Source: an uncultured Verrucomicrobiae bacterium
Lineage (GTDB): Bacteria; Verrucomicrobiota; Verrucomicrobiia; Limisphaerales; Palsa-1400
Direction: 5' to 3'
Length of the DNA stretch: 64,000 nucleotides
NCBI GenBank assembly: GCA_963764165.1
Contig: CAVXRD010000002.1
Span: forward strand, 736,001 to 800,000
Below are positions 6,093-36,926 of the stretch, piece after piece (positions within the stretch are counted from its first letter, which is position 1; every line of letters starts with the position of its first letter). The notes below the pieces were generated by a model. It made no database searches, had not been told where the DNA came from, and saw only the letters and a program-made list of their open reading frames with translations. The position numbers and the translations under genes were made by a program.

Positions 6093-7304
6093 CTACCGCA
6101 GGTGGGAAAAGATCTCCTTCATTTGAGGGAATGTGTTGGCGAACAAAAAGAAAGTGGCGGCGCAATAGCAGAAGGTGATCACCACGGCGGCCGCGTGAAT
6201 CCACGGATTTGCGTTATATGCCTTGAAGCCGTCACGCCCCAGCCAGCGCTTGAGGCCAATCGTGTAATAGTGATGGGTTACAAAGCCAAGCGCGTGGGCG
6301 GCGCCGAAGGCGGCATAATTCCAGCCCACCCCGTGCCAGATGCCCACCAGGAGAAATACCACCACAATGGTTAGCGCCACGGCGTGATTGACGCTTTTCG
6401 GCCCCAAGACGCCGACCAGCCATTTTGACAAAGGGGTAAATACGACATCGCGCATGTACTGCGAAAGGGTGATATGCCAGCGATTCCAAAAATCCTTGAG
6501 ATTTCGCGCGGCGATGGGCTCGTCGAAATTCTCGTCCACGGGGAAGCCCATCAAGCCGGCCAGCCCAATCGCCATATCGCAAAAGCCGGAAAAATTGCAG
6601 TAGAGGTAAAGGTAGTAAAAAATGGCGGCCACCTGCAAATCCACCCACGGATGAAAATGATCGTCAAACAAAAGATTGGCATAGATTAGCTGGAAGCAAA
6701 CGTTCCCGATGAATTTATATTTTACAAAACCGATCAAGATGCGCAGCGCAGCGCGGCCCCAATCGATCACGGGCGGCTGATCCCCGAAGGCGCGCTGATA
6801 CTGGCTGAGCGGGCTGATTGGCCCCACCGTCAAGGTGGGCACAAAAAAGCAAAAGCCCGCGTACTTCCAGAATCCCGGCACCGGGACCGAGCCGCTGCGA
6901 ACCTCCAGCACCAGGCGGCTGCTCCGAAAAGCCATGTAGGAAAGGCCGATCAAAAGCGGTCCGTAGCGCAGGACGCTTCCCGAATAGACAGCAGAGCTGG
7001 TCGGAACGTAACGAACCAAAACCAAGGCCAGCAGCGGAACAGAAAAAGCAATCCACGGCAGCCAGCCTCCTTTTCCAACGAAGACGCGCAGGGCCGCATA
7101 CTGCAATGCGATCAGCGCCACATAAGCCGCAAAGGCCAAAGCATGCTGGCGGTCCTCCTTGTAAAACCAAAAAAAATAGACTGCGGCCACATTCAAAATG
7201 CCGAAAGCAGCCTCCCTCCACAGGCCCCGGAGCTTTTTCATGACCAGGCATCCAACCAACAGGTAGGTCAAAATCTCAACCCGCAAACTGATTTGTTGAT
7301 GCAT
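6093..7304 (-). CDS. MBOAT family membrane-bound O-acyltransferase (DltB/AlgI-like)
   Basis: IGLSYMAF, GPI, LYCNFSGFCDMAIG, ENF..P, DFWNRWHITLS, GIWHG (catalytic His). Confidence 0.95.
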   Translation of the reverse strand: MHQQISLRVEILTYLLVGCLVMKKLRGLWREAAFGILNVAAVYFFWFYKEDRQHALAFAAYVALIALQYAALRVFVGKGGWLPWIAFSVPLLALVLVRYVPTSSAVYSGSVLRYGPLLIGLSYMAFRSSRLVLEVRSGSVPVPGFWKYAGFCFFVPTLTVGPISPLSQYQRAFGDQPPVIDWGRAALRILIGFVKYKFIGNVCFQLIYANLLFDDHFHPWVDLQVAAIFYYLYLYCNFSGFCDMAIGLAGLMGFPVDENFDEPIAARNLKDFWNRWHITLSQYMRDVVFTPLSKWLVGVLGPKSVNHAVALTIVVVFLLVGIWHGVGWNYAAFGAAHALGFVTHHYYTIGLKRWLGRDGFKAYNANPWIHAAAVVITFCYCAATFFLFANTFPQMKEIFSHLR

Positions 7305-7308
7305 TTCC

Positions 7309-7440
7309 TCAGAATCCTCCGTAAACGATCTTGATGCCGCTGAACAGGTCCGCGGAAGCGGCTATTAACAGAGCGGTGAAAAGGCACAACAGAACAACCG
7401 CCGCGTAAATCAATGTCTCAAAATTTAACTTGCTCTTCAT
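7309..7440 (-). CDS. 43-aa single-TM microprotein, DltX-like acyl-shuttle peptide (below the ORF-track cutoff)
   Basis: Translated by hand: MKSKLNFETLIYAAVVLLCLFTALLIAASADLFSGIKIVYGGF*. One hydrophobic helix and a C-terminal xxYxxF hexapeptide. Overlaps the upstream gene and ends 4 nt before the MBOAT start. Confidence 0.8.
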   Translation of the reverse strand: MKSKLNFETLIYAAVVLLCLFTALLIAASADLFSGIKIVYGGF

Positions 7441-8506
7441 AAAGCTTTGCCAGGGAAGGCGCCATCACGCGCGTGAAAAACTCCTGTCCGTTCTGATTTA
7501 AGTGTTCGAAATTATAAAAGAACCTCGGCACATCGTCCTGAGATATCCCCTTGAATAAGTGGCTGGGTGCAATCCCCATCATAATCAAATGGGAGCCGAA
7601 TCGATCCGGCCAAAAAGTCGGCTCGTCGATTACCGGCCTGCCTGTTTCCTCCCCTTGCGGCATGTGAAGGAAAACCAGTTTAACATGGTGCTGCTCCGCC
7701 AGGGCGCCGATCTTTTTCGCAAAGGCATCCTGCATGGTCGAAATGGGGGAGGTCGAGAAGCGGAACGCGTCCTTCGTGGCGCTCGAATAAACGCAAACAT
7801 CCGTTTCCTTCGCCTCGGGCTCGGGCGTGAAATCCTCGAATCGCCCGCCGGATCTCAGACGAATCGCCAAGGATCCCAAATGATCTGCCGGGCTCGCCAC
7901 ATTGGTGAAAGATCCCCAGCCAATCTCCGCCGACGGAATAACAGGGAGATTCGTTCGCGCCAGACTCAACAGGCTTCGCGGCATCCCAAGAATGGAACTG
8001 GAATAAAACGTTACCTTCGATGCGAGTGTGAGGCCGTCCAGATCCCCGGCATTATCCGCGAACCGGAAAAGAAAGGGGGCCCGCCTGTGAGCCACGTTGC
8101 CGCCGCCTGTGCTGCAATCGCAAATGACGATCATCCGCGCCCGGCGATGCTCAAGCAAATCTTTCATGATGAAGTACATCGCATCATAACCGGGCCCGTT
8201 CCAGCAGAGCGACCTTGCCACCGCCTTGCGCCCCAGGCGCTCGGAGAGCTGTTTTTCCACCTGCGGAACATCGATGCCCCACCACATTCTTGACGAACCC
8301 ATAAAGGCCACGTCGATATCCCCTTTCTCCTCAAAAATCTGATCGTGAAGATATGGGAACGAGCCCGCTCCCCAGGACAGGGATGAATAAATCTCTTCGC
8401 GCGAGGGCAAAAAGGAGCGCCGCATCACGACAGGCAGCAAAAGAATCGCTGCCAGGATGAAGACAAACGCGCCGGCTTGGCGAGTCGAGGAGAAAGCAGG
8501 CCTCAT
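7418..8506 (-). CDS. Membrane-anchored SGNH-like periplasmic acyltransferase (DltD/AlgJ-like)
   Basis: N-terminal TM, FMGSSR block-I Ser, C-terminal FYNFEHLN (DxxH-like). Start at ATG 8506 overlaps the ACP stop. Confidence 0.7.
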   Translation of the reverse strand: MRPAFSSTRQAGAFVFILAAILLLPVVMRRSFLPSREEIYSSLSWGAGSFPYLHDQIFEEKGDIDVAFMGSSRMWWGIDVPQVEKQLSERLGRKAVARSLCWNGPGYDAMYFIMKDLLEHRRARMIVICDCSTGGGNVAHRRAPFLFRFADNAGDLDGLTLASKVTFYSSSILGMPRSLLSLARTNLPVIPSAEIGWGSFTNVASPADHLGSLAIRLRSGGRFEDFTPEPEAKETDVCVYSSATKDAFRFSTSPISTMQDAFAKKIGALAEQHHVKLVFLHMPQGEETGRPVIDEPTFWPDRFGSHLIMMGIAPSHLFKGISQDDVPRFFYNFEHLNQNGQEFFTRVMAPSLAKLYEEQVKF

Positions 8507-8751
8507 CAGCCTCCCTCCGCGCGCTTGAGAATTAAATCCGCAAATTCCCCGATGTTCTTCGTCGTTTCCACTTCTCCAACTCGAAAGCGGATGGAAAATG
8601 CCTTTTCCACCGAGACAACGAGCGAGATGTGAATAAGTGAATCCCACTCGGGCACGTCCTTGGCCGAAAGCGCAGGAGTCAATACCACCGGCTCCAGAAA
8701 TACGTTGTCGAAAACACCTTGCAATTTCGCGATAACGTCAGATTGATTCAT
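8506..8751 (-). CDS. Acyl carrier protein
   Basis: 81 aa MNQSDVIAKL...; SAKDVPEWDSLIHISL phosphopantetheine Ser motif. Confidence 0.92.
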   Translation of the reverse strand: MNQSDVIAKLQGVFDNVFLEPVVLTPALSAKDVPEWDSLIHISLVVSVEKAFSIRFRVGEVETTKNIGEFADLILKRAEGG

Positions 8752-10606
8752 AAGCTCGGGAGGTAATTTTAATATGGGTGGGAATGGGCGCTGCGCTCTC
8801 CAGCGCCAACTCAAAAGTTCGGCGCCCCGGATTCTCCGCGACCAAGGCAAAGCCCATGCGGGTATAAAAATCCCGCACCATCTCATTCTTGGCCGTAGGC
8901 AAATAGATGCCCTCAAGCCGGGTGCAATCTCTCTTCTTCGCCAATCGCACCAATTCATTGAGAACTTCTTCTTCGACCTGCCGTTTAAGAACCCGGCAGC
9001 TCATAAGCCATGTGTCGATCTCCAAAGTCGAGCCGGAGCGGTGCCCAACGACAATGGAAATCAGTCCGTGATCCCCAAAGCGATCCTTGAGACGGACTGA
9101 GAATCCAACATAATCAGGATCGAGCATGAGCGCCTCGATTTCGGCCTCGGTGCGGCGCCGGGTGGTCAAGTTGAATTGATTGCTCTTGTTGATGAGCTGC
9201 GCAAGCCGCGGAACATCGAGCTTCGTGAATTCGCTGATCGCCGCCTCCATCTCGAGCGACTTCAGATACGAATCCATGTCCGTCACGGAAGCTTCAAGCG
9301 CCTTGCGCTGGGCGTCAGAACGGTATTGGCCCGTGCGCTCGGCGTCCTCGGAAGTGATGCTGCGCGGCTCGAACAACCGGCAATCGGCCAGCTGGCTGAC
9401 GTAGCCGGCCGGGTCCGGTCCAAGCAGAATGGTCGTCACTTCCGGGGCAAACTGGCGCACAATTTCAATTTCGGCCGGGTTGTCATCCACGAACACAAAG
9501 CTATCCAGCCCCAGGTTCAATTCCGCCGCCATCCTCCGCAGATTGTCCGACTTGGGATCCCAGTTGGCCTTGAAGGAAACAATATCGCTCATCCGCAAAA
9601 TCATTTCAGGATGTTTCTCAAACGCTTCCGCCGCCCTGGCATGGTCATTCTTGCTCACGACGGCCAGCAAGACGCCGCGCTGTTGAAGCGAGGCGATGTA
9701 TTTCTGAAATGCTTTGAACGCTTCGCCGCGCGGAGAGGTATCGCCCAGTTCAATGCCCTCCAGTCCATCATCCGCCACCACGCCGCCCCAGAGGGTGTTA
9801 TCCAAATCAAGCGCCAGCACTTTCTTGGGCGAGCGTTTGAGCGAGGCAATCAGATGGGCCGTTTCACGCGCAAATTCCACCAGCAACGCCGAGGAGCAAG
9901 GCTGTTTGCTTTCGAACCAGCCGCGCTCATCGCGCGCGTTCAAGCCGCCGCAGCGATTCGCCAAAAATTCCAGGTCGCACATGTGGACGTAGGCCGGGGC
10001 GTTGAGCCCCAGCTCCATGTTGACCCATTTGCGGAAATTCCAATCCGAACCCATCGTTCTTCCCCGGAACGCGCCCAGGTCATGGTGGGCGGGCAAAATG
10101 AAATTGGAAACGATCACCTCAGCGCCCGTCCGATTATGAGCCTGCCGGGCCAGCTCCAGAATTGACTGCGCCACCTGGCTGGCGGCGGCTTGCTGCGCTT
10201 CCCGCGAATCCGTCAGGCGCCCCTGATAGCGGCACCTCTGCTCGGAGGGCATCAGCAAAACAACTTCCGGCGCAAAAGAATAAAGGCCGCTGGCCTCATC
10301 CATGATTTCAGAAATATAGTTGTCAAAATCGCCCCGCCAAAACTCGCAGGGAGTCCCCTGCATCTCGCACAAGTGCTCGAGCAATTCGTGGAAGGGATAA
10401 AGACTGTAACCGCCCACGATGGCCAATTTTAACTGCTTTCGCAAAGGTGTCGGCCGGGCAATTTCGCGCGAGTAGGCCTTTTTCCGCCAATTCGACAACG
10501 AAAACAGTTCGTCAAAATATTTTGCCGTGCGGGTGTAATCTTCCAGGCAGCCCCAAACCGCAGGATCGCGCTGCAAAAGAAGGGTTTTGATGTTGCCTAT
10601 TTCCAT
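8738..10606 (-). CDS. FkbH-like HAD-IIIC glyceryl transferase/phosphatase
   Basis: DLDNTLWGG, SKN, NWDPKS, FVDDNP.E, KSNQFNLT, WLMSCRV (acyl-carrying Cys). Confidence 0.95.
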   Translation of the reverse strand: MEIGNIKTLLLQRDPAVWGCLEDYTRTAKYFDELFSLSNWRKKAYSREIARPTPLRKQLKLAIVGGYSLYPFHELLEHLCEMQGTPCEFWRGDFDNYISEIMDEASGLYSFAPEVVLLMPSEQRCRYQGRLTDSREAQQAAASQVAQSILELARQAHNRTGAEVIVSNFILPAHHDLGAFRGRTMGSDWNFRKWVNMELGLNAPAYVHMCDLEFLANRCGGLNARDERGWFESKQPCSSALLVEFARETAHLIASLKRSPKKVLALDLDNTLWGGVVADDGLEGIELGDTSPRGEAFKAFQKYIASLQQRGVLLAVVSKNDHARAAEAFEKHPEMILRMSDIVSFKANWDPKSDNLRRMAAELNLGLDSFVFVDDNPAEIEIVRQFAPEVTTILLGPDPAGYVSQLADCRLFEPRSITSEDAERTGQYRSDAQRKALEASVTDMDSYLKSLEMEAAISEFTKLDVPRLAQLINKSNQFNLTTRRRTEAEIEALMLDPDYVGFSVRLKDRFGDHGLISIVVGHRSGSTLEIDTWLMSCRVLKRQVEEEVLNELVRLAKKRDCTRLEGIYLPTAKNEMVRDFYTRMGFALVAENPGRRTFELALESAAPIPTHIKITSRAYESI

Positions 10607-10841: not shown

Positions 10842-13838
10842 TCATTGCTGCATGACACGGTAGAAGAGACGATTGCTCACGCCGCTGCCGCTGTCGGTAA
10901 AATTGAAAAAAGGGCCGCTGAACACGGCGGATGGGATGCCGCTCCAATGGATGAGATCGGTCGAGGATTGCACAACGTAATTCGTGCCCGCAACGGCGTT
11001 GGTGACTGAGAAGTGAATCGGTCCATGCGGCGGGCCGCCGAGAGAATCGGCGACAATCGTCGGCGGCTGGTAGAAAAAGAGGGAAATGACAATGTTTCCA
11101 CCCGGACTGTTCGCCGCGCCGTCGACGTCAATGTGGTAGGCGGTGTTCACCGTGACAGGGAAATCGACATGGCTTGTGAACGTGTTGTGGAGGTTGGCGT
11201 CGAAGGACGCGACAGCAGTCAAATCGTCGAGCGCGAAGCCGGTAAAAACGGCCATGCGATTGTAGAAATCGCTGGTGACATTGACGCGCAGCCATCCGTT
11301 GGTCGGCGCGGTCCAAACCCACCAAACCGTGCGGCCCGCCGCCGGCGCGTAATCGACGATGCCGACGTTGGCGCCGAGGAGCGGTTCACCCGGCTCGGCG
11401 GAGGCATCGACGTTGTTGTTGGTGCCCGAGGCGATGTATCCGCTCAGGACGGCCGCGTTGGAGAAGCTGTCGCTGGCCGGAGGCGTGCCGGTGCCGATAT
11501 TTAAATTGATCGTGCCGGAGGCTGCGTTGTAGCCGAGCACGGCGATGTGATACGTAACTCCCGCCTGGGCAAGAATAGGCAAAACGCTGTTGGTTGGATT
11601 GGCGACGGGCGCACCGACACCGCCCAAGGTTGCCAGCGTGTCGTTGGTGAAAACTTCGAGGTCGGTAAAGAACGAACTGCCGAGCGTGCTGATGACCACG
11701 TTGCCACTGACGGGCGCAGTCCAACTCCACCACACCGAGCGGTCAGCCCCGTAATCGGACGGCTCGCCCGGCTCAAGGGTGGTGTTGGTGTTGGAGCCCG
11801 TGGCGCTGACGGGAAATCCTGTCAAAACAATACTGTCCGCAAAGTCATCGTTGGGCGGCTGCGAGAATGTCAGGGTCAATGAGATGCTGCCCACAGACGA
11901 ATTCTCGCCATCGACGGAAATCTGGTAGGTTGTCCCGGCGCTGACAGGGAAACGGACATCTTCAGCAGTGACCTGCGCATTGGCGTCGTAGTTGGAGGCC
12001 ACCGTCTGAAGTGTGGCCAGCGTGTTGTTATTGTAGACGGAGATCAATGGGCTGATGCCGCTGTAGGCGCCCGAAACCTCGAGCTTGCCGTTGGCCGGAG
12101 CCGTCCACGACCACCAGAGAGAATGAGCGGCGGGAGCATTGCCGTGCGGGGGCTCGCCGGGCTCCGCGGTGGCGGCGGAATTGTTAGCTTGAACGGTCAT
12201 GCGCGCCTCGGAGAGAGCAACACGATTGGCGTAATTGTCATTGCCGTTGATCGATCCCGTTTCGCTGAATTCAGCCAGCAGCGCGTCGGACCAGCCATCA
12301 CCGTAAATCGGTTGGAAGGCATCGGGTGTCGTGGGATAATACGCTGCGAATGAATACGGCGAATCGATGGCCAGCCCGGTAGAGCCAATAACAAAGACAT
12401 TGCCATTGCCAACGCAGGCCACGCCGCCGCAGCCGACCTGATAACTGTTGGCCAGATACCGAAGATAAAGATTGGTGGAACCTGTCGGATCGAGCTTTGA
12501 GACGTAGGCGGCGAAATTGCCTGAAAGCGTGTTGGCGGGGTCTGTTCCCACCGGCGCATCGTAAGACGACGATTGTCCGCAGACATACGCGTTGCCGGAA
12601 GGATCCAGCGCCAACCCGGCGAGGGTCGGGTAGATGTAGCCCTGGGACGCATACACCGGTTCGCGCATGTCCTCCGAGCCGCTGCCGCCGAGATAGGTCG
12701 CGTAGCGCAATGTCGTTCCTGTGGGATCGAGTTTCGCAACGAAAGCGTCCCAATTTCCGCCGCCGTAATTTGGCTGCGGGGCGTTGGTCGTGACGGGAAA
12801 ATTCGTCGCGGACGTCTGGCCAAAAATGCAAGCGCCGCCCGCCGAATCAACCGCTACGCAGGCCGCGATGCTGGCCGCGAGATCATCGCCCGGATCGGAG
12901 CTGAGGCCGTCGCCCAGCAGCGTTACATACTGCAGCGTCCCGAAGCCGGGAGAAAGTTTGGCGATGAAGGCTTTCGTCGGTCCGTTGGTTCCGATTTGAG
13001 TAAAGGCGGCGGCGGCCGGGAGATTGGTCGACGAGGTCTGTCCCGCGATAAATACGTTGCCGGACACATCCAATGTCATGCCCATCCCAAAATCGTCGCC
13101 CTCGCCTCCCAGGAAAGTCGATGACAGCAGATGCGATCCCGTGGCATCGAACTTTGTGAGGAACATGTCGAAACCGCCGCCGAGATTCGTTTGCAACGCG
13201 TCCGGCGTCACAGGGAAATTGGTCGAGTCCGTCGAGCCAAAGACAATCGCCTCACCATTGGAATTGACCGCGATGGCGCGCGCGGCGTCCGCGCCTGATC
13301 CTGAAAGGTAGGTGCAGTAAGCGAGACTCGTTCCGTCCGCGCTGAGTTTCGCGACGAACGCCTCCAGATTGCCCCCAAGGCCGTTAACCTGAAAGGCGTT
13401 GGTCGTCGGCAAGAGGTCTCCGGCGGTGCCGGCGATATAGGCGCAGCCCGCAGCGTCCACCACAATGGCTCGGGCGCTGCACCATGGAACCAGTGTGATG
13501 TAGGAAAACGCCTTGGTTGTTGGATTGAACTTGGCGACAAACGAACCCTGGGTGGCGTTCGTTCCCAAATAGCCGCTCGCGATACGGGCCGTAAATGGGA
13601 AATTCGTGGCCGATGACGAATAGCCTGTCAAATAAACAAACCCATCCGGCCCCGTGGTGATGGCCGCGCCGGTTTCACCGTTATCCCCGGGCGTGCCGCC
13701 CCCGAGGTAAGTTGAGTAGGCCAGGGCCGGCATCGTGGCGTTTTGGGCCTGGATCGGATGCGTGGGCGCAGCGCTGGCGAAAACCGCCAAGGCGAGAGCG
13801 GCAATTTGTCGTGGGCGGTAAATGGGAGCCAAAGCCAT
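10842..13838 (-). CDS. Secreted SBBP-repeat (beta-propeller) surface protein with three repeated beta-sandwich domains
   Basis: Signal peptide; repeated YSTYLGG / DAFVAKL / G.T.STNFP units; three 'ND.F.N...EPGEP...SVWW.WTAP' domains; C-terminal QSSTDLIHW...FTD...FYRV. Start codon uncertain. Confidence 0.85.
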   Translation of the reverse strand: MALAPIYRPRQIAALALAVFASAAPTHPIQAQNATMPALAYSTYLGGGTPGDNGETGAAITTGPDGFVYLTGYSSSATNFPFTARIASGYLGTNATQGSFVAKFNPTTKAFSYITLVPWCSARAIVVDAAGCAYIAGTAGDLLPTTNAFQVNGLGGNLEAFVAKLSADGTSLAYCTYLSGSGADAARAIAVNSNGEAIVFGSTDSTNFPVTPDALQTNLGGGFDMFLTKFDATGSHLLSSTFLGGEGDDFGMGMTLDVSGNVFIAGQTSSTNLPAAAAFTQIGTNGPTKAFIAKLSPGFGTLQYVTLLGDGLSSDPGDDLAASIAACVAVDSAGGACIFGQTSATNFPVTTNAPQPNYGGGNWDAFVAKLDPTGTTLRYATYLGGSGSEDMREPVYASQGYIYPTLAGLALDPSGNAYVCGQSSSYDAPVGTDPANTLSGNFAAYVSKLDPTGSTNLYLRYLANSYQVGCGGVACVGNGNVFVIGSTGLAIDSPYSFAAYYPTTPDAFQPIYGDGWSDALLAEFSETGSINGNDNYANRVALSEARMTVQANNSAATAEPGEPPHGNAPAAHSLWWSWTAPANGKLEVSGAYSGISPLISVYNNNTLATLQTVASNYDANAQVTAEDVRFPVSAGTTYQISVDGENSSVGSISLTLTFSQPPNDDFADSIVLTGFPVSATGSNTNTTLEPGEPSDYGADRSVWWSWTAPVSGNVVISTLGSSFFTDLEVFTNDTLATLGGVGAPVANPTNSVLPILAQAGVTYHIAVLGYNAASGTINLNIGTGTPPASDSFSNAAVLSGYIASGTNNNVDASAEPGEPLLGANVGIVDYAPAAGRTVWWVWTAPTNGWLRVNVTSDFYNRMAVFTGFALDDLTAVASFDANLHNTFTSHVDFPVTVNTAYHIDVDGAANSPGGNIVISLFFYQPPTIVADSLGGPPHGPIHFSVTNAVAGTNYVVQSSTDLIHWSGIPSAVFSGPFFNFTDSGSGVSNRLFYRVMQQ

Positions 13839-13896
13839 AGATATTAAGCATGGGCAAAACGAGATTGCACTGTCAATTGATAAGCAACGAACGTGT

Positions 13897-14066
13897 CGGG
13901 TGTGAGACAAAGCTCTTCATCCCGCTTTGTCTCCCAGCGCCGTAGAGGCGGGAAACCTTTGTAGAAACGATTACCAAGAGATTTCAAGCTCTCCGTCAGG
14001 AGCGGCACCTGCCGCGCCTCTGGCGCTTGGCGGCTATGCGGCATGAGGAATTCCGTCTCACACCCG
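13897..14066. repeat. Inverted-repeat bounded REP/MITE-like element
   Basis: CGGGTGTGAGAC (13897) and GTCTCACACCCG (ends 14066) form a perfect 12-bp inverted pair. The GTCTCACA/TGTGAGAC motif recurs at 15410-15469 and near 49064. Confidence 0.45.
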
Positions 14067-14265: not shown

Positions 14266-14697
14266 ATGGAAACCGCGCGCATTATTGATTTTGCCAATAT
14301 CTCCGAAGGGTCGGAATACGAGCACGACTACGTCATCACCACCGCGGTATTCGAGAATTTCATGCGCGCCTTCGGGGATCGCAGCCCGGTGCATGTCGAC
14401 GCCGAATATGCCAGAGGGTGCGGCTTTCTCGACGCGGTCATGCACGGTGCGATATTGAATGGGTTTGTATCGCATTTTGTCGGCATGATTTTTCCCGGCG
14501 CCAACAGCCTGCTCCTGTCCGTCGAGCTGCGCTATTTGCAGCCGTCCTACCTGGGGGATGCTTTGCGTCTCCATGCGAAGGTCGCACAGAGGCAGGAAAC
14601 GGCCCGCGTTGTCGTCCTTCACGTCCGATTTCAAAATCACACGCGCGGCGTTATGGTTGCCAACGGGCGCATCCAAGTGAAAGTCAGGGGAGCGTGA
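14266..14697 (+). CDS. MaoC/PaaZ-type hot-dog fold dehydratase
   Basis: FGDRSPVHVD..YA, VMHGAI, FPG, LRYLQP.Y.GD motifs. Confidence 0.9.
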   Translation: METARIIDFANISEGSEYEHDYVITTAVFENFMRAFGDRSPVHVDAEYARGCGFLDAVMHGAILNGFVSHFVGMIFPGANSLLLSVELRYLQPSYLGDALRLHAKVAQRQETARVVVLHVRFQNHTRGVMVANGRIQVKVRGA

Positions 14698-15404
14698 GCC
14701 GCCACACTGTCATTATCACGGGGGGCACCAAAGGCCTTGGACTGGCCACCGGCCTCGCATTTGCCCGCGCGGGGCACAGGGTCATTGCCTGGTACGCAAA
14801 GGACGAGGTGGCAGCCGAATCGGCCCGGACAGAACTGCTCCAACTCTGTCCTGATTCCCTCACACTGAAGCGCGACGCCCGGTTCGAGAACGCTGATTTT
14901 TGGACCCTTCCGGAAATCACGTCGGCCGAGAGCCTCGTTTTGATCAACAATGCCTGGGGTTCGGTCGCACCCCGCCCGTTCCATCTATCGCCGTGGGAAG
15001 ACTGCGAATCCGCTTTGATGTCTGGATTGAAAGCGGGTTGGGAATGTTCCCGGGCGGTGGTGCGTCCGATGGCCAAAGCGGGCCGGGGAGCCATCATCAA
15101 CGTGCTGACGACCACAGTGCATGGGCTTCCGCCGAAGGGATTCGCCGCCTACGCCACCGCCAAACACGCCCTGCGCGGCTTGACGCTCTCGCTCGCCTCC
15201 GAGTATTCGGCACGGGGAATTCGCATCTTTTCAGTTTCACCCGGCCTCATGCCGACGGCCCTCACCGCGGGCTGGGATCCGCGATTCATGGAGGCGGCGC
15301 GCCAGCTCGGGCAAACCAGCGACCCGTCTGCGGCCGGGCAACGGATTCTTGAATTGACCAATTCGCCGGAGACACTCGGGCGCGGTGAGGATTATTGCGT
15401 TTAG
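14694..15404 (+). CDS. Short-chain dehydrogenase/reductase (FabG-like)
   Basis: ITGGTKGLG, LINNA, YATAK catalytic motif, SPG. GTG start overlaps the MaoC stop (GTGA). Confidence 0.88.
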   Translation: MSRHTVIITGGTKGLGLATGLAFARAGHRVIAWYAKDEVAAESARTELLQLCPDSLTLKRDARFENADFWTLPEITSAESLVLINNAWGSVAPRPFHLSPWEDCESALMSGLKAGWECSRAVVRPMAKAGRGAIINVLTTTVHGLPPKGFAAYATAKHALRGLTLSLASEYSARGIRIFSVSPGLMPTALTAGWDPRFMEAARQLGQTSDPSAAGQRILELTNSPETLGRGEDYCV

Positions 15405-15500
15405 TGTCGTGTCTCACAGTTTCATGGCACCGCACGGGAGCGGTTCACCCATTCGAGGCGTGTGAGACAACATGGGCGGGATTTCTCTGCCATAACCCCA

Positions 15501-15581: not shown

Positions 15582-17774
15582 CTACGCTTTGACGGAGGTC
15601 TTTTCGGCCCCCTTTTCTGAAGTCTTCTTTTCCTCTTTGCTGCCGTAGTGGCCGTAGCCGTAACCGTGGTAGTAAGAGTAGTAGTACGCGCCTCCCAGAC
15701 GGCGATGCGGGAGCAGATTCAAAACCACCCCGCTCAACGGGGCGCCGGCCCGCTTAAGCAATTGCACGGCGCGCTCCACACCTTTGCGGGAGGTCTTGTA
15801 ACCGTGAACCACCAGCATGACGGTCTGGACTCTGTCGGCCAGCAAAAGAGTGTCGCTGACCGGAAGGACTGGCGCGGTGTCAATAATGACGCGGTCGTAG
15901 TGGGCCAGGCAGTCCTTGAGCAATTGGGTGAAATCAACCTGAGAGAGCAATTCCGATGGGTTTGGAACGGACGTGCCGCTGGGCATCCAGCTAAATTTGG
16001 CGATTTCACCGTGCTGGATGCATACTTCCTCCAGCTTTTTCCGGCCCAATAAATAATCAGTCACACCGGGGAGGATGTGACGCTTGTCGGTGAAAAAGTT
16101 TTCCACCATCGGACGGCGCAAATCCATGTCGATCAGCAGAACGCGAAGCCCCTGCTGGGCCAGGCTGGCGGAAAAATTCAACGCGGTAAACGTTTTGCCT
16201 TCGCCTGGCAGTGAGCTGGTGAAAAGATATGTCCGGCGATCCTTCTCTTTTCCGAGCATGGAAACAGTCGCGCGCAGCGTGCGAAACACTTCTGCGCCGG
16301 ATGAATTGGAGTCGCCGGAGGCCACCAATTTGGCCCCCTCTTTGGGCAGCTTTGGAACCGTCCCCAACACGGGCAGTGCGAGATACTGCTCCACTTCGTC
16401 CACCGTCCTGAACGAGGTGTTCATGGCCGATAGCATAAAGCTTAGGCCAAACCCAAGCGCGAATCCGCCGAAGATCGCCAGGGCAAAAATGGCCTTGATC
16501 TTGGGCGAGGCTGGCAATTCAGGAATCAACGCCGGCTGAACCAGCTTGATGCGTTCAGGAGTGATTTTTTCCGCCACGGAGGTTTCGCCAAGGCGCTTGT
16601 AGAGCGCGTCGTATTGAAGCTTGTTCGCTTCAACCTGCCGGACGAGCACGTTATACTGCACCGCGGCATCGCTCAATTGCATCGCATTGCTTTCCGCGCT
16701 CTTTTCCTCGAGTTCCAAACCTTCCTTGGCGGTCTTGGCATTTTCGTAAGCAATCCGCAGGCCTTCTTGCGTCCGCGCCCGCGCGCGCAGCACGGTGGTG
16801 GCCAGTTGAGCCTTCAGCGCCTTCACCGATTCAGCAGCCTGGATATATTTCGGATGCTTTTCCTTATAGCGAAGACGGATCAACACAAACGAGTCCTCAG
16901 CGCGCTGAACTTCGCTGGAAGTTTGGACCACATCCGGATCAGTTGAAATCTGCGAATAAGCCATCAACGCCTCGATGTTGGTCGACATCTTCATCGCGTC
17001 ATTGTAAGCGCCCTCAGCTTGAACAAACGCGGCTTTGCTTTGGGTCAGGCGAGCACTGATGTTTTGCAATTGCGGGGTGACGATGTTCTGGTTTTCCTGC
17101 AGCGAGATGGTGCCATTCGTCCTCCGATAGTTTTGCAGATTCGTTTCCGACATTTCCAATGTCGCGCGGGCTTTGTCTGCCTCAAGCTTTAGAAACCCGC
17201 TCGCTCCGATGGTGGTGGCGCGCTGCATGGAGGCATCCTGCCCGAGATAGCTGTCCACCAAAGAGTTTGCCAGATCCGCAGCCAGGGCAGGACTCGTGTT
17301 TCGCACAGCAATATCAATCAAGCGAGTATTCCGGCGCAGCGTGGTTTTGACGTTTTTCGAAAACTCTGTGATGATTTCCTCGCGCGACACGATATTGGAT
17401 CCGTTGGTCACAGCATAGCCTTGCGCCGGGAGCAGATGATTGGTGATCAAAACCTGTTCCAGCAGCACAGGGTTGCAAAGCTTTTGAACAATGGTGTTCA
17501 AGACGTCCTGGCTTTGGGCGTCCGCATGCACGACAGCTTCGGCATCCATGATCTTGGCGTCCTGTTGTTCCACTTGAACCGTGCTCACCGCCTCATAGAT
17601 TCGGGTGGCGTGCTTGACGTAGAGCGCAGCGGCCACGACACAAAGGACAACGCAGGTCAGGATCAACCAGCCTTTATCCAGAAGCAGCCGCACCACCCCA
17701 TGCAAGTCCATGGACGAATGCGGCGTGCGAGCCTCCTGCTGTGGATTAAGGTCGAGAGGGTCGAGATTTGTCAT
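15582..17774 (-). CDS. wzc: Polysaccharide co-polymerase / tyrosine autokinase (Wzc/GumC)
   Basis: Two TMs around a coiled periplasmic domain; TSSLPGEGKT Walker A, LLIDMDLRRP, IIDTAP; Tyr-rich tail YYYSYYHGYGYGHY. Confidence 0.95.
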   Translation of the reverse strand: MTNLDPLDLNPQQEARTPHSSMDLHGVVRLLLDKGWLILTCVVLCVVAAALYVKHATRIYEAVSTVQVEQQDAKIMDAEAVVHADAQSQDVLNTIVQKLCNPVLLEQVLITNHLLPAQGYAVTNGSNIVSREEIITEFSKNVKTTLRRNTRLIDIAVRNTSPALAADLANSLVDSYLGQDASMQRATTIGASGFLKLEADKARATLEMSETNLQNYRRTNGTISLQENQNIVTPQLQNISARLTQSKAAFVQAEGAYNDAMKMSTNIEALMAYSQISTDPDVVQTSSEVQRAEDSFVLIRLRYKEKHPKYIQAAESVKALKAQLATTVLRARARTQEGLRIAYENAKTAKEGLELEEKSAESNAMQLSDAAVQYNVLVRQVEANKLQYDALYKRLGETSVAEKITPERIKLVQPALIPELPASPKIKAIFALAIFGGFALGFGLSFMLSAMNTSFRTVDEVEQYLALPVLGTVPKLPKEGAKLVASGDSNSSGAEVFRTLRATVSMLGKEKDRRTYLFTSSLPGEGKTFTALNFSASLAQQGLRVLLIDMDLRRPMVENFFTDKRHILPGVTDYLLGRKKLEEVCIQHGEIAKFSWMPSGTSVPNPSELLSQVDFTQLLKDCLAHYDRVIIDTAPVLPVSDTLLLADRVQTVMLVVHGYKTSRKGVERAVQLLKRAGAPLSGVVLNLLPHRRLGGAYYYSYYHGYGYGHYGSKEEKKTSEKGAEKTSVKA

Positions 17775-17823
17775 ATAATGTCTGCGTATATCGGCAATTG
17801 CGGTTCAATAATAATGCTCAAGC

Positions 17824-18444
17824 TCAAAACACCTTCTCCGGGATATCGATAATGTCATCCGGCTGAATCTCGAAGGGCTTCTCTTTCGAATTCTTCGACA
17901 TTTTATCCGCATCCAAGGTATAGACTTTTTGCTGGCCGTTTTCTTTACGGCGAACCTTGACGGCCTTCGGGGAGCCAATGCGGGAATAACCGCCAGCCGT
18001 GGCAATCGCCTCCAGCAAATTCACCGGCCGGTTCGGGGGAAAATTGTAAACCCCGGGTTTTGTGACATTCCCCATGACAGAGTATTGGCGTTCCGCATAG
18101 TGCTCCACCAAAAGGTTGACTTGCGGGTTGACCAGATAATCCTTGCCGTATAAATCTTGGATGCGCTGGCGCGCCTCGCTCGCCGTCAACCCATCGACGC
18201 TGACTTGGCCCAGAAGCGGAAGCATGACCAGGCCCTTCTTGTCAATAGTCGTTTTAATCGCCAAGTCCTCCTCCTGATAAACGCTTATGGCGATGACGTC
18301 GTTTGGACTGAGCTTCCGATCTGCTTCCACCGCCGGGGCAGCGGGGGCTGATTGATCTTTGGGATCAGCAAAAAGCGTTGTGGACCAGATACTTCCAACG
18401 GAAACAAATGCAAATACTCCGATTCTGAGAATACGCGAAATCAT
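17824..18444 (-). CDS. wza: Polysaccharide biosynthesis/export protein (Wza-like, Poly_export + SLBB)
   Basis: LSPND.I.I.VYQE.DL, G...LPLLG.V...GLT, PQV, V.G.V.KPG.Y, LLEAIA.AGG. Confidence 0.9.
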   Translation of the reverse strand: MISRILRIGVFAFVSVGSIWSTTLFADPKDQSAPAAPAVEADRKLSPNDVIAISVYQEEDLAIKTTIDKKGLVMLPLLGQVSVDGLTASEARQRIQDLYGKDYLVNPQVNLLVEHYAERQYSVMGNVTKPGVYNFPPNRPVNLLEAIATAGGYSRIGSPKAVKVRRKENGQQKVYTLDADKMSKNSKEKPFEIQPDDIIDIPEKVF

Positions 18445-18634
18445 AGATAAACAACTAACAGCGTGGAATTATATACGCCGCGCGGATTATAGCAAGTTTT
18501 TTCTTACTCTCTTACCCGTGTTTTCCCTAGTGCCGATACCCCATATTAATTTCCCCGAGAAAACAACGGACCTGCTGGGCGGACGAGGTGCCGCGGTAAG
18601 CAAATTGTTTCCTTCAATTGGGCTCCTCAACCGG

Positions 18635-19030
18635 AATGTAGCGGGTCTGTAGCGGCTTTGTAGCCCCAATGTTGGGTTCCTCAACGTTTTCGGTGGAATA
18701 GAATCCGGGCACTCGGCCACGAATTAAAACGAGCGACGGGGCGGCTGCGAGCCACAGCTCGCGCCCCGTCGCGGTCGGACAGCGAAACGCTCATTTACAA
18801 CAACTTACCCATGAATGGCTTACAACTATTGGATGGCCCTGAGATGAGGCAGCGAGATTCCCCTGGATTACTGATGTCTGCACCTCCTCAGAGGTTTGGT
18901 TGCTCGCAACCGGGTTTACACGAACTTCTATTCCACTGAAAACGTGGAGGAACCCAATGTTGCCCCTTATCTCGTTGATGGTCAACCGTGTAGCGGGTGT
19001 TGCGGGTTTTTCGGGATTATATGCACATTC
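18635..19030 (-). repeat. GTAACA/GCTACA phased intergenic element, copy 1 (split by the MITE)
   Basis: After removing the MITE, the minus strand reads GAATGTGCATATAATC..AAAA..GCAACA-CCC-GCTACA-CG-GTTGACCATCAAC-GAGAT..GCAACA-N5-GCTACA-N5-GCTACA-N5-GCTACA. Confidence 0.7.
18675..18954. mobile_element. 280-bp non-autonomous ISL3-type MITE
   Basis: 29-bp terminal inverted repeats GGTTCCTC(A/C)ACGTTTTC(G/A)GTGGAATAGAA (2 mismatches). Flanked by the 8-bp direct repeat CAATGTTG (18667-18674 and 18955-18962). No transposase; internal GC hairpin at 18733-18772. Confidence 0.85.
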
Positions 19031-19135
19031 ACAGATGTGCTCTTCCGGTGGTCCTGCGTTGGTTTCTCCAAGCGGAACTCCGGCAACGTCTGCACAGGGA
19101 TTCTCATTCCAACGAAAACGGGGAGGAGCCTCGCA

Positions 19136-20626
19136 CTAAGGCGTGATCCGCCTGGACAGCGTGCTCAAGACGCAGCAAATGACGAGAAACAGCGTCAGAA
19201 CCGAATGCACCTGCATCGGGAAGTCAAAACACGCATGCACCATGCAACCCGCCAGCGAAAGCCACAAAAACATCGCAAAATAGCCGTTCCCATGGACGCC
19301 GCCGCTCCAAAACCAATGCGAGAAGATCAATATGAGTGAGAGAAAAATGGGCGCCGCGCCAACCCAGCCAAAAGTGATGACCGCTTCCAGCCAATCATTA
19401 TGCATGTAAGAAAGCGCCTCGTCCGAGCGCGACCGGCGATAGAGCTGGTGCATGGATTCAAATGTTCCCGGGCCGGTGCCGAAAACAGCGTTGTCCCGCG
19501 CCATGTAGTGTCCGGTTAAATAAAGCCCCGCCCGCGAATCATATCCCTCGTGAATCATTTCCATGCGGGGCGCCAGCGACTCCCATCCCAATAAAATCCC
19601 CGTTCCAACCACGGTCGTCAATACCAGCAGGATGCCCGCCTTGAGCGACCAGTGTCCCGACTTCTGGGCAGTCCACAAAATGACGGAGGACATCACCAGG
19701 TTTGCCATCAAAATCAGGAAGCCGCCGCGGCTGGCGGATATGGCCGGGCCAATCGCCATGATCGCCACACAGGGCAGCAGCATGGCAAAGCGGCTTTTCC
19801 TGGAATGGCTGTCGGCAGGCCGGCGGCGGCGCGTGGCCGACACGGAAGCCCACCAAAATCCGAGAACAGCCGTCCAAAGCAGGTTCAAATATTGCGCGGC
19901 GTTGGCGCGATACGCATAGGGGCCAAATTGCTGGACGGATTCAGTGTTGATTCGCGGCACGACCGTCCAAAGCAGCTTGTTTCCTCCTTCGACGCGCTGA
20001 ACAAGGCCTTGCATGGCGAGCGCGGCGCCATTCAGGGCCAGCAGCCAAAACAACCGCCGCAATCTCAAAGGCAGCCTCGACCCAGCTTGAAACAAAAACC
20101 CTTCCTCCTCAACCCGCTGAATTTCCCTTGGCGCCATCGTCAAAAGCCAGTCGCGCAAGGCCCAGAAAAAACCGGCCAGTCCCAGCAACTGCCAAAATTC
20201 ACCCCAAGTGCTGTCCTGGTCGTAACTATGCGGAAGCCATGGAATGGCAGGAAGATAGTCGAAGCTCCAGGCATTCGGATGGTAAACCGCCCGCGCATTG
20301 ACCGCGCTGACCAGGCAATATCCGAGAATAAGCAGGGTGCCCGCAAAAAGAAGTCCGCTGAACCATCGCTCACGCCGCAGCAGCCGTTCCGGGTTCGTGT
20401 TGGTTGAATACTGGATCCACCGCGCCGGACGATAGCCAAGAACTCGCAGAGCCTGCTTGACCAGCCACAGAAAACCCAGAACGAATCCCACGCCGTTCAT
20501 GACGTGGATGGACCACGTTTGGGTTGTCCCAAATGCCCACGGCCCAAACAATAATCCCAGATAGATCAACAACTCAGTGATCCATTCACAAACCCGGAAA
20601 ATTGTGGCAAGAGCACTGGACATCAT
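19136..20626 (-). CDS. O-antigen ligase / polymerase family membrane protein
   Basis: Multi-TM; FGPY.YRAN.A.Y, SASRGG, FGTGPGTF, HNDWLE, H...DFPMQ. Confidence 0.88.
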   Translation of the reverse strand: MMSSALATIFRVCEWITELLIYLGLLFGPWAFGTTQTWSIHVMNGVGFVLGFLWLVKQALRVLGYRPARWIQYSTNTNPERLLRRERWFSGLLFAGTLLILGYCLVSAVNARAVYHPNAWSFDYLPAIPWLPHSYDQDSTWGEFWQLLGLAGFFWALRDWLLTMAPREIQRVEEEGFLFQAGSRLPLRLRRLFWLLALNGAALAMQGLVQRVEGGNKLLWTVVPRINTESVQQFGPYAYRANAAQYLNLLWTAVLGFWWASVSATRRRRPADSHSRKSRFAMLLPCVAIMAIGPAISASRGGFLILMANLVMSSVILWTAQKSGHWSLKAGILLVLTTVVGTGILLGWESLAPRMEMIHEGYDSRAGLYLTGHYMARDNAVFGTGPGTFESMHQLYRRSRSDEALSYMHNDWLEAVITFGWVGAAPIFLSLILIFSHWFWSGGVHGNGYFAMFLWLSLAGCMVHACFDFPMQVHSVLTLFLVICCVLSTLSRRITP

Positions 20627-20796
20627 CAATCTGGAGAGTTCAACGAACCAGACTGCGAGCGCAAAGTAAAGATGAATTGGCCAGCGGGCCTCCGCAGGCG
20701 CCGGACAAAATTATTCTGCCGCTGTGTTTCGCTGAAGGTGGCAGAGAACTCTCGCCTCTGACGGACGATCGAATCGAGGACTTCGACCGCGCCTGC

Positions 20797-22311
20797 TTAA
20801 TACGCATTTTTCTGCTTTAGGAACGTCATCATCATGATTCGGAAATCAAGGCCGACGCTCCAGTTTTCGACGTACCAGATGTCATAGCGAATGCGTTCTT
20901 CCAGGCTGGTGTTGCCGCGCCAGCCATTGACTTGAGCCCATCCCGTCATTCCGGGCAGGCACGTGTGGCGCGCGTGGTAATGGGGGATCTTATACTTGAA
21001 TTGGGAGATAAGCTCCGGGCGCTCCGGGCGGGGTCCGACGAGACTCATATCGCCTTTGAGAACATTCCAGAACTGGGGAACCTCATCAATGTTCCATTTG
21101 CGCATGAAAGCGCCCACCTTCAGGCGGCGGGGGTCGTTTTCCTTGCACCATTGCGCGCCCGCCGTTTCCGCGTCCAGGCGCATGCTGCGGATTTTATACA
21201 TTTTGAAGGATTTGCCATTTCGGCCCGTGCGGTGTTGGCAATAGAAGATAGAGCCGGGCGATTCCCGATAGACGAGAAATCCAAAAATCGCAATCAACGG
21301 CGCGGCGATGGCCATGCCGACCAGCGCGCCCACTAAATCAATCATCCGCTTCAAGACGCGATTCGAGAAATAATCCAACGCCATTTCGCCAACGCCGAGA
21401 ACGGGAACACCGCTGATGGATTCCAGCCGCAGCCCGGAGGCTAGAATTTGGAAATAGGACGGAATGACCTTGAACTGCGCAAACTCCATTTCGCACAGGT
21501 TTACCAGGCCAATAATTTCTCCCATGGGCGCGTAGAGATCCGCCAAAATGACAATATCCGCCTGGCGTCGTTCCAGAAGGCCGACCAGATTCTGGTAATC
21601 ACCCAGCACTGGCACCGTTTCTGGCGGCCTGGTGTGAAGCCTGCCTTGCGGGGAGGGCACACAGCCGACAATAGTATATGGGTGGTTATCGTCTTCGCTG
21701 ATTTCCTTTTCCAGTTGGTCTGCCTCCTTGCCCCAGCCGACGAAGAGCACACGCTGGCGCAAATTAAACGCGAGCGCCTCCCAGTGGGTGATCTTAAAAA
21801 GGAGATAGCGCCAACCCAGCATCATCACCAAAAGACACACAGAAGAAGACACCATGAATGCTCGCGAGATGGGCGGATCGAACTTTAGAATCAAGCTCAC
21901 CGCCATGTAGGCGAAAAACCAGAAAATCGCCCCTTGAATCAGCACTTTGGCGGTAAGGTGAAACCGCTTGAAAATACGACGGCTATACAGCCTCAAATAA
22001 CAAAAAGTCCCCACCAAAAAAGATGTTCCGACCGCGAGGAGATTGAAGTAATCCGCAAAAATCAAATGCTCGCCCCCGTGTCCCAGCGGAATCATGCCCG
22101 AAGAAAATCGCACCCAATATCCGAGACAAAGGGAGGCGTAAATGACAACCGCATCCAAAAGAAGCGCAATCGTAAGGACAAATTCGGCAGTCGGCTGCCA
22201 GAAATACTCGCGCCGCGGGGTCGACGACGGAGCAATAGACACAGGCTCTTCTACATTAAGCACTTCGAGTTTAGCATTCATGGATTGACTCAATCGGGCG
22301 CTTTTCCCCAT
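20797..22311 (-). CDS. Undecaprenyl-phosphate sugar phosphotransferase (WcaJ-like priming GT)
   Basis: KR.IDL, F.MYKIRSM, DEVPQFWNVLKGDMSLVGPRPE, PGMTGWAQVNG, D..YVENWS. Confidence 0.95.
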   Translation of the reverse strand: MGKSARLSQSMNAKLEVLNVEEPVSIAPSSTPRREYFWQPTAEFVLTIALLLDAVVIYASLCLGYWVRFSSGMIPLGHGGEHLIFADYFNLLAVGTSFLVGTFCYLRLYSRRIFKRFHLTAKVLIQGAIFWFFAYMAVSLILKFDPPISRAFMVSSSVCLLVMMLGWRYLLFKITHWEALAFNLRQRVLFVGWGKEADQLEKEISEDDNHPYTIVGCVPSPQGRLHTRPPETVPVLGDYQNLVGLLERRQADIVILADLYAPMGEIIGLVNLCEMEFAQFKVIPSYFQILASGLRLESISGVPVLGVGEMALDYFSNRVLKRMIDLVGALVGMAIAAPLIAIFGFLVYRESPGSIFYCQHRTGRNGKSFKMYKIRSMRLDAETAGAQWCKENDPRRLKVGAFMRKWNIDEVPQFWNVLKGDMSLVGPRPERPELISQFKYKIPHYHARHTCLPGMTGWAQVNGWRGNTSLEERIRYDIWYVENWSVGLDFRIMMMTFLKQKNAY

Positions 22312-26903: not shown

Positions 26904-26925
26904 GACTAACCACGCTCCAAACAAC

Positions 26926-32406: not shown

Positions 32407-32902
32407 ATCACAACATGAATTTCAAACTAACCATAATCTTCTCGCAGCCGTCGAAAAGAACGACATTCCAACAGTGCGACAACTGCTTGAAGCTGGCTAC
32501 GACGCAAACGAGAGAGATCGGGGGATGAGCACGCCTCTCATGAGAGCTGCCTTTCACGGATACAGTGACCTATTAACATTATTGCTTGGCTTTGGAGCAG
32601 ACGCGAATTTGGTAGACAAACTGGGCAAGACAGCCCTGCACTACGCGGCTCAGGAACAACACGAAACCGCAACCAAGATCCTTCTGGATGGCGGTGCCCC
32701 GCTAAACGCTCAAGACAATTACGGCAATGCCCCTCTGCACAACGCAGTTTATTATTCGCTCGGTCGCGGAGCAACAATTAGATTGCTCCGTGAGCGTGGT
32801 GCTAATGAAAACCTACAAAATGGCAGCGGCGTTACCCCGCTTGACCTTGCCAAAACGATCGCCAATTACGACGTGCTTCAGCATTTTGGTAACAAGAAGT
32901 AA
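32393..32902 (+). CDS. Ankyrin-repeat immunity protein (cognate to the GH-E toxin)
   Basis: TPLMRAA, GKTALHYAA, GNAPLHNAV, GVTPLDLA repeats; overlaps the toxin stop. Confidence 0.9.
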   Translation: MNNRKSQHEFQTNHNLLAAVEKNDIPTVRQLLEAGYDANERDRGMSTPLMRAAFHGYSDLLTLLLGFGADANLVDKLGKTALHYAAQEQHETATKILLDGGAPLNAQDNYGNAPLHNAVYYSLGRGATIRLLRERGANENLQNGSGVTPLDLAKTIANYDVLQHFGNKK

Positions 32903-32907
32903 TAAGT

Positions 32908-35712: not shown

Positions 35713-35722
35713 AGAGGTAAAT

Positions 35723-36343: not shown

Positions 36344-36351
36344 AATAAACG

Positions 36352-36768: not shown

Positions 36769-36844
36769 GCTGCATTCGCAGCGCGCCTTTGCGGGCGCAT
36801 GCACGGAAAGGGGTCGCACATAACCACATATTTTGCGATTGACT
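36734..36844 (+). pseudogene. Collapsed Rhs remnant (repeat leader fused to a piece of the main Rhs signal peptide, then deleted)
   Basis: MIWRVIFCWLLA-LHSQRAFAGACT-ERGRT*; 36769-36805 is 36/37 identical to 26988-27024. Confidence 0.65.
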
Positions 36845-36926
36845 GATCGAGAATGCAGCCGCAGCCTGCCATTCGCATAGCCGAGGATCACGCAATATGC
36901 TATTAAGTGGAACTGCCCCCTTTCTT

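Follow-up and report, generated by a model that had tools for sequence, protein, structure and literature searches.

Gram-positive bacteria use the Dlt pathway to bring D-alanine through the membrane to the cell wall. Passages of PMC12148441 present Dlt as the sole MBOAT/SGNH pathway described that has both a carrier protein and a microprotein as shuttle, the other pathways of this type having neither. PatA/PatB, AlgI/AlgJ/AlgX and WssH/I, which act on envelope glycans of Gram-negative bacteria, use acyl-CoA and have the tyrosine motif fused to the MBOAT. FkbH proteins belong to the loading of carrier proteins for polyketides and nonribosomal peptides, for which OzmB and the lactyl starters of FR901464 and bryostatin are reportedly examples. 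In vitro, FkbH homologues load glyceryl from 1,3-bisphosphoglycerate (reported in an extract of PMC3625739). The suomilide/banyaside (bsl) cluster of Nostoc has FkbH and MBOAT in one cluster; there, FkbH is the loading domain of a nonribosomal peptide synthetase (NRPS) and the MBOAT a separate tailoring step, with no link between them proposed in the passages of PMC13122637. Here we describe a cassette of five genes, for FkbH, an acyl carrier protein (ACP), a 362-amino-acid (aa) protein with SGNH-type motifs, a microprotein and an MBOAT. It lies in a stretch of 64,000 nucleotides, called the window below, from an uncultured Verrucomicrobiae bacterium (contig CAVXRD010000002.1, here C2, positions 736001-800000, of a 7.0-Mb genome that is 97% complete). 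The cassette probably encodes a Dlt-like, carrier-fed trans-membrane relay that exports a three-carbon (C3) hydroxy-acyl group and attaches it to a glycan of the envelope. For this relay the genes, their motifs, their conservation and their linkage are established directly, while the reactions are proposals. In what follows, G000 denotes the genome of the window, L-numbers the related loci compared and C-numbers the contigs.

Comparison with described systems

Like Dlt, the cassette has a carrier, a short tail-less MBOAT with both histidines, a separate microprotein ending in Tyr-x-x-Phe and an anchored protein with SGNH-type motifs, and the nearest solved and phylogenetic relatives of its MBOAT are DltB. 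Unlike Dlt, it has FkbH in place of DltA, an ACP that is not DltC-like, an SGNH-motif protein that is not DltD-like by sequence, an MBOAT that scores under the DltB cut-off and does not fall within the clade of DltB, a different gene order, extra tailoring enzymes and a host that would be a diderm. The absence of DltA argues against D-alanine as the cargo. A preliminary description, made from the sequence, called the operon a one-to-one analogue of Dlt; this holds for the roles and fails for family membership. Filing the operon as dlt was rejected, as its loader, carrier, MBOAT and SGNH families all fail Dlt membership, and it is classed instead as a variant of the MBOAT-SGNH tyrosine-shuttle type (Dlt/PatAB). 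With PatA/PatB, AlgI/AlgJ/AlgX and WssH/I it would share the tyrosine-shuttle chemistry and the SGNH partner, differing in its carrier and microprotein. In common with the polyketide and NRPS loaders FkbH, Tmn16 and AbyA2, an intact-motif FkbH domain stands next to a discrete ACP; unlike in those systems, there is no polyketide synthase (PKS) or NRPS in the window, and a membrane export relay follows the ACP.

The five-gene operon

Each of the five genes has an open reading frame, and all are encoded on the minus strand (Table 1). In gene order, the junctions are overlaps of 14, 1 and 23 nucleotides, followed by a gap of 4 nucleotides, so that the tightly coupled operon of the preliminary description, running from FkbH through ACP, SGNH-like protein and microprotein to MBOAT, is borne out. 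Its family assignments fared unevenly in searches with profile hidden Markov models: FkbH (TIGR01686) and the MBOAT (PF03062) pass, the ACP stays under its cut-off, and the 362-aa protein has no match in Pfam or NCBIfam.

Table 1. The cassette, the putative tailoring genes and neighbouring genes (positions within the window)
Feature	Positions	Strand	Basis
FkbH, stand-alone long form (FkbH_N + HAD-IIIC + GNAT-like end), 622 aa	8738..10606	-	TIGR01686
Acyl carrier protein (ACP), 81 aa	8506..8751	-	Asp-Ser at 37-38, acidic
SGNH-motif protein, N-terminally anchored, 362 aa	7418..8506	-	conserved motifs
Microprotein, single-pass, 43 aa, C-terminal Tyr-x-x-Phe	7309..7440	-	membrane stretch, Tyr/Phe
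Short MBOAT without fused tyrosine tail, 403 aa	6093..7304	-	PF03062
MaoC-type (R)-dehydratase, putative detached tailoring gene	14266..14697	+	PF01575
SDR reductase coupled to the MaoC gene, putative detached tailoring gene	14694..15404	+	adh_short
SBBP beta-propeller surface protein between cassette and MaoC-SDR	10842..13910	-	SBBP repeats
Wzc, Wza, Wzy_C-domain protein, WcaJ-like priming transferase	15582..22311	-	Pfam + NCBIfam

FkbH and the carrier protein

FkbH scores 325 bits against TIGR01686 (NCBIfam cut-off 147); its match to FkbH_N in Pfam is weak and under the cut-off. The DxDxT motif at 267 and the SCR cysteine at 537, in which we take the HAD aspartate and the cysteine to be the functional residues, are present in 18 of the 18 homologues checked. 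The only sequence match in the PDB is an uncharacterised protein of Bacteroides fragilis, BF1531 (3slr). Judged by its sequence, FkbH is predicted to load glyceryl onto the ACP.

The ACP has a PP-binding match with E 0.01, under the Pfam cut-off, and no DltC model is among its NCBIfam matches. It is acidic (isoelectric point 4.8) and has 62-80% identity to nine orthologues from other cassettes, and 16-24% to six DltC proteins. The Asp-Ser pair is invariant in an alignment with these 15 proteins, Ser38 being the predicted phosphopantetheine site. The genome contains 11 matches to AMP-binding (PF00501) and three to ketosynthase, none of either kind within the window, which agrees with the earlier statement that no PKS is present there. 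Contig C3 encodes an NRPS that includes a second FkbH as one of its domains. With no ketosynthase or AMP-binding match in the window, and an NRPS-embedded FkbH located on C3, a PKS or NRPS role of the cassette was rejected.

MBOAT and microprotein

The MBOAT is the only one in the genome above the PF03062 cut-off. It reaches 185 bits against the DltB model TIGR04091, for which the cut-off is 375, and its only PDB matches are the DltB structures 6bug and 8jem (E 3e-33). His277 and His324, present in 121 of 121 aligned rows, correspond to DltB His289 and His336, which are active-site residues according to passages of PMC11035591. The C-terminus is without a Y-x-x-F tail.

That motif is found in the microprotein, which has a membrane stretch at residues 10-28. 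Tyr40 and Phe43 are invariant in 18 of 18 aligned copies and both align with seven DltX proteins. There is no DltX match in Pfam, and the ESM Atlas cluster for the microprotein, in which 45% of members are DltX, is reached with a score (0.91) that is weak by the tool's own measure. Among 115,946 stop-to-stop frames of at least 35 codons in the genome, 34 end in Y-x-x-F, and the microprotein alone also has a membrane-spanning stretch. The aligned copies show synonymous codon changes at the Tyr and Phe positions and use all three stop codons. Given this uniqueness in the genome, and the retention of Tyr and Phe with synonymous variation, a chance frame or a by-product of a ribosome-binding site was rejected as its origin. 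By analogy, the microprotein is predicted to be the acyl shuttle, in the role of DltX. Its last codons (Gly-Gly-Phe-stop, 7309-7320) form part of a GGAGGA-like ribosome-binding stretch before the MBOAT start, and this overlap may be why Gly replaces the usual Gln near its end.

A further 55 stand-alone FkbH loci were examined, matches in very long frames being left out; within 6 kb, an ACP is present in 49 and an MBOAT in 29, and contig ends truncate several of the loci. Some of these distant cassettes combine a fused-tail MBOAT with a carrier, unlike the PatA/AlgI types. Tail and microprotein are complementary: no microprotein was called with any of the 22 tailed MBOATs near FkbH, and six of the seven tail-less ones have one, which agrees with the prediction of the shuttle model. 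In a quick, midpoint-rooted MBOAT tree of 60 rows (15 of the split form, 18 DltB chosen from the Firmicute dlt operons mentioned below, 27 tailed; incomplete rows left out), the split MBOATs and DltB fall together on one side of a branch with an SH-aLRT of 100, and the 27 tailed MBOATs on the other. The 18 DltB rows form their own branch (support 99), which excludes the MBOAT of the window. Cassette MBOATs are commonly auto-named DltB, and this naming hides the system from view.

The SGNH-motif protein

The 362-aa protein has a hydrophobic stretch at residues 6-24. Its family has 593 relatives among cluster representatives; of the 150 listed, 111 are near full length and were aligned with it (112 rows). 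SGNH-type residues are conserved: Ser72 in 111/112, Gly106 in 102/112 and His335 in 112/112. The acid position ahead of His335 is Asp in 69/112 and Asn in 30/112. Within this alignment there are weak Pfam matches to AlgX in four members and to SGNH in three. Neighbours in the ESM Atlas, at 0.95-0.97, are DUF1574, LB_356 and DltD-bearing clusters. A scan of metagenomes with the protein yielded two loci, one a truncated cassette, and a scan of the plasmid collection gave no match. It is predicted, again by analogy, to be the final acyltransferase, in the role of DltD.

In L008 (3629-7224) the SGNH-motif gene is present in three tandem copies within one cassette, which suggests several acceptor positions. 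The genome of L003 has a second SGNH-motif gene with a microprotein (L158 18374-19919, on G445:C263), about 8 kb from a MaoC-SDR pair.

Conservation and distribution

The search for relatives kept 80 loci: 12 are close (48-62%) and nearly all others are Firmicute dltB genes in dlt operons. The set of close cassettes comes to 18 distinct genomes, with L004 and L141, and L007 and L139, merged as pairs from the same genome. In 16 of these 18 all five genes occur in the same order on one contig (L001-L003, L005, L006, L008-L012, L138, L140, L142, L143, L173 and L174; in L138 the MBOAT is spread over two frames). One of the remaining two is broken by a contig end inside the microprotein, and the other has FkbH and ACP apart from microprotein and MBOAT. 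Records with close cassettes are titled Verrucomicrobia, Acidobacteria and Pseudomonadales, among others.

The distribution is patchy. A close FkbH occurs in 6 of 400 other genomes of the order, in 3 of 301 genomes around that of L011 and in 1 of 401 around that of L003 (centres included), and the 362-aa family in none of 400 genomes drawn across the phylum. A genome of the same genus has only a remnant (L159 1-1037, G001:C39), in which FkbH residues 1-187 run into residue 177 of the MBOAT; it is a deleted or misassembled cassette.

Putative tailoring genes

The system has more genes than the five of the preliminary description: either MaoC and SDR genes or a gene of the VOC family travel with the cassette. 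MaoC and SDR stand behind the MBOAT in seven close genomes (L004, L006, L009, L010, L011, L140 and, as a fusion, L142), a VOC protein in seven others (L001, L002, L005, L007, L008, L138 and L143), and no close cassette has both. In L003 the MaoC and SDR genes are on another contig, and the sequence of L012 ends at the MBOAT. Searches with the stand-alone MaoC subfamily, which miss MaoC-SDR fusions (that of L142 went undetected), did not find MaoC in the five VOC-type genomes searched; in the seven MaoC-type genomes searched, VOC proteins have at most 27% identity. The alignment of the VOC family (A7) contained one unrelated row (L008:8711-9088, a nuclease-family gene), and the L008 VOC gene was located separately.

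In the genome of the window a MaoC-SDR pair lies upstream of the cassette, and there is no close VOC protein (best 27%). The MaoC and SDR proteins are about 65% and 63% identical to the copies of L004; MaoC has 50-66% identity to the genes right behind the MBOAT in L004, L006, L009, L010 and L011, and SDR 38-63% to cassette-linked copies. The best PDB match of MaoC is an (R)-enoyl-CoA hydratase, and the SDR motifs TGxxxGxG and YxxxK are intact. The MaoC subfamily is present in 6 of 401 genomes of the order, five of which have a stand-alone FkbH; in the four FkbH-bearing genomes other than that of the window, MaoC lies within the cassette. The VOC proteins match methylmalonyl-CoA epimerase best, under the cut-off, and most plausibly epimerise C2 to give L-glyceryl. 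The exported group is thus probably modified by tailoring enzymes. Conversion of glyceryl-ACP to lactyl-ACP by a dehydratase and a ketoreductase is known from polyketide starter units, and no paper joining FkbH, lactyl, dehydratase and ketoreductase was found in the open literature. With the MaoC-SDR pair in this genome, lactyl is no less probable than glyceryl as the cargo: the exported group is perhaps lactyl, somewhat less probably glyceryl, and some other group is the least expected.

Inverted pairs of a 10-nucleotide motif (GTGTGAGACA, or nearly its inverse) flank MaoC-SDR on both sides (window 13897-14066 and 15411-15470). The genome has nine exact copies, most followed by an AATT-like tract, and the motif is possibly a small dispersed repeat or binding site, perhaps tied to rearrangement of the cassette. 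One VOC-family stretch is found near the ends of three contigs of G000 (C1:1711986-1712291, C4:787559-787729 and C5:90368-90673), suggesting either a repeat or an overlap in the assembly.

Proposed relay and alternatives

FkbH would dephosphorylate 1,3-bisphosphoglycerate and put D-glyceryl on the ACP, as its family and intact motifs indicate. MaoC could then dehydrate glyceryl-ACP to pyruvoyl-ACP and SDR reduce this to lactyl-ACP, a step suggested by gene linkage and the starter-unit chemistry; in sister cassettes VOC would act instead, most plausibly inverting C2 to give L-glyceryl. If the MBOAT works as its homology to DltB implies, it would move the acyl group across to the periplasmic side, where Tyr40 of the microprotein would receive it. 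From there the 362-aa protein, by motif and analogy, may accept it on Ser72 and esterify an envelope glycan. The polymer of the neighbouring wcaJ-wzy-wza-wzc genes, of Wzy type, is the first candidate acceptor, linked to the cassette by proximity alone, and an envelope glycan in general is the best guess. That the host is a diderm fits the outer-membrane export gene wza in its genome.

Several observations weigh against this reading. The window's 362-aa protein has Asn at the position ahead of the histidine where 69 of its 112 relatives have Asp; a PDB search with the 112-row alignment gave no sequence match; and hhalign of the family against 30 DltD proteins gave a probability of 6% over 78 columns, covering the C-terminal histidine block only. 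Taken with the conserved motifs, the weak family matches and the Atlas neighbours, these results leave the SGNH fold likely and not established. The published motif is FxYxxF, and its first Phe is not conserved in the 18 microproteins. The role of MaoC and SDR in this genome we only infer, since the pair is on the opposite strand and 3.7 kb distant; neither kind of tailoring gene lies near the cassettes of L173 and L174; and among the 55 mostly distant FkbH loci the exclusion between MaoC and VOC is weak (13 with the one, 13 with the other, one with both, where about three are expected by chance). In four loci (L003, L138, L139 and L143) the flanks that were scanned contain no glycan gene. The grouping of the split form with DltB is a lead on origin and not a result, because the rows of the tree were chosen by similarity to the query.

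Three other explanations were weighed. The same relay could deliver its C3 cargo to a membrane lipid, a lipoprotein, a protein-linked glycan or a secreted small molecule. The genes flanking close cassettes do vary widely: L011 and L012 have GT2 and PMT-type transferases there, L138 and L143 housekeeping genes. Strand and a hairpin speak against co-transcription of the cassette with wza/wzc, and in the suomilide cluster the MBOAT is proposed to acylate the sugar of a small molecule (passages of PMC13122637). Against this, the characterised MBOAT/SGNH pairs in passages of PMC12148441 act on envelope polymers, glycan genes of differing kinds lie within about 4 kb of most close cassettes, and the suomilide FkbH is an NRPS domain, the NRPS-embedded FkbH of the present genome being on another contig; such an acceptor is unlikely. 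A little less likely still is a cargo that does not come from 1,3-bisphosphoglycerate, where the long FkbH, which has an extra N-terminal domain, loads another small acyl group or is a phosphatase, with MaoC/SDR or VOC building something else, for example a methylglyoxal-derived lactyl group in the fashion of glyoxalase. The only solved sequence relative of FkbH is uncharacterised, in the PDB the VOC family matches best to entries from structural genomics that bear the names glyoxalase I and lactoylglutathione lyase, and SDR has Thr where we take a catalytic Ser to be usual. The clear TIGR01686 score, the presence of both the HAD aspartate motif and the SCR cysteine motif in every homologue checked, the glyceryl loading by FkbH homologues in vitro (extract of PMC3625739) and the sharing of FkbH by MaoC-type and VOC-type cassettes speak for glyceryl loading instead.

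The least likely alternative separates the two halves of the cassette: FkbH and ACP would supply a reaction in the cytoplasm, for instance the N-acylation of a nucleotide sugar, and MBOAT, microprotein and SGNH-motif protein would transfer acetyl from acetyl-CoA, as in PatAB. No MBOAT is found within 6 kb in 26 of the 55 FkbH loci (several of them at contig ends), one genome (L139, L007) has FkbH and ACP on a different contig from microprotein, MBOAT and VOC, and an FkbH-domain gene, cj1302, is part of a flagellar glycosylation locus in Campylobacter according to passages of PMC7099621. On the other side, the MBOAT groups with the carrier-using DltB and not with tailed MBOATs, all four junctions overlap or abut, the close cassettes have no conserved cytoplasmic acyltransferase, and their tailoring genes stand directly behind the MBOAT, all of which favours a single relay from FkbH to the envelope.

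Wider occurrence and significance

Of the 86 plasmid records matching FkbH, 40 are from Sinorhizobium. On pSymB of S. meliloti ml46 the order is VOC, an MBOAT ending in FLYQGF, a 409-aa protein, ACP and HAD/FkbH. The 409-aa protein (L164 7942-9171), annotated 'TonB-dependent receptor', has no family match and no match to the 362-aa profile; its place between MBOAT and ACP, and its motifs, suggest that it is the SGNH partner. The FkbH frame is open in the record of S. meliloti 2011 and divided into two frames in that of 1021 pSymB (L171 9206-11268), a difference that may be genuine or may stem from a sequencing error. On a Rhodobacteraceae plasmid, ACP and FkbH are joined by a tailed MBOAT, a protein related to the 362-aa one (E 4e-15) and VOC. 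Two further arrangements are FkbH-ACP with a WcbI-family gene and SDR on a Niveispirillum plasmid (L165 7800-12280), and FkbH-ACP-MaoC-SDR without MBOAT in a Subdoligranulum record (L166 7926-11397); these are possible cytoplasmic outlets for the same donor.

A broader view, put forward tentatively and with less than even confidence, is that FkbH-ACP-MBOAT cassettes are a widespread and undescribed third class of envelope acyl-shuttle pathways. They would use polyketide starter chemistry to make interchangeable C3 groups (D-glyceryl, L-glyceryl via VOC, lactyl via MaoC and SDR), exported onto surface glycans by a DltX-like microprotein or a fused tail. O-glyceryl and O-lactyl esters, including the L-glycerate of gellan, might have their genetic basis in these cassettes, and the split form might be a sister lineage of Dlt in diderms. 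If so, there would be a second system with carrier and microprotein, in diderms and with a polyketide-type loader, making the relay a general platform with swappable cargo, with a bearing on the origin of Dlt; loading of lactate or glycerate would be an undescribed way to decorate bacterial surface sugars. No description of an FkbH-ACP-MBOAT relay was found in the open literature, a search from which subscription papers were mostly absent, so that absence from print is not established. FkbH and MBOAT appear together there only in the cyanobacterial peptide (suomilide) context.

Where bacterial polysaccharides bear C3 esters, the cassette supplies candidate genes. One such polymer is gellan, whose L-glycerate alters its gel properties (passages of PMC9104527); no passage of PMC5399355 deals with glycerate. 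FkbH-ACP with an epimerase would make the stereoisomer found in gellan; the genomes compared include no gellan producer. The tailed version on S. meliloti pSymB, with the same YQGF ending, makes the idea testable in a standard laboratory bacterium.

Setting of the cassette and other features of the window

The preliminary description placed the operon inside an exopolysaccharide locus. This is correct by position, and co-transcription with either the glycosyl/acyltransferase run or wza/wzc is not supported, judged by strand and a hairpin. A plus-strand run of glycosyl- and acyltransferase genes ends at 5951, and the cassette converges on it. Between the cassette and wcaJ-wzy-wza-wzc are a hairpin of 14 pairs 3' of wzc and three other genes. 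Scans for promoters (5 found, 4.3 in shuffled sequence) and terminators (13 found, 14.0 in shuffled sequence) stay at the level of the shuffle, and GC content does not change clearly at the cassette (53-58%, surroundings 51-61%). A look for RNA runs covering the stretch gave none, which counts in neither direction. The SBBP protein has no homologue in any related locus compared and is probably not part of the system.

Further along the window, a 1404-aa beta-strand-repeat protein (49161-54850) has a C-terminal tail that we take to be PEP-CTERM-like, with no model match; after it come another WcaJ-like gene, the second in the window, and glycosyltransferases. The region 26860-39329 contains three RHS/YD-repeat genes whose C-termini differ. 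A small gene within that region (35723-36343) may code for an immunity protein.

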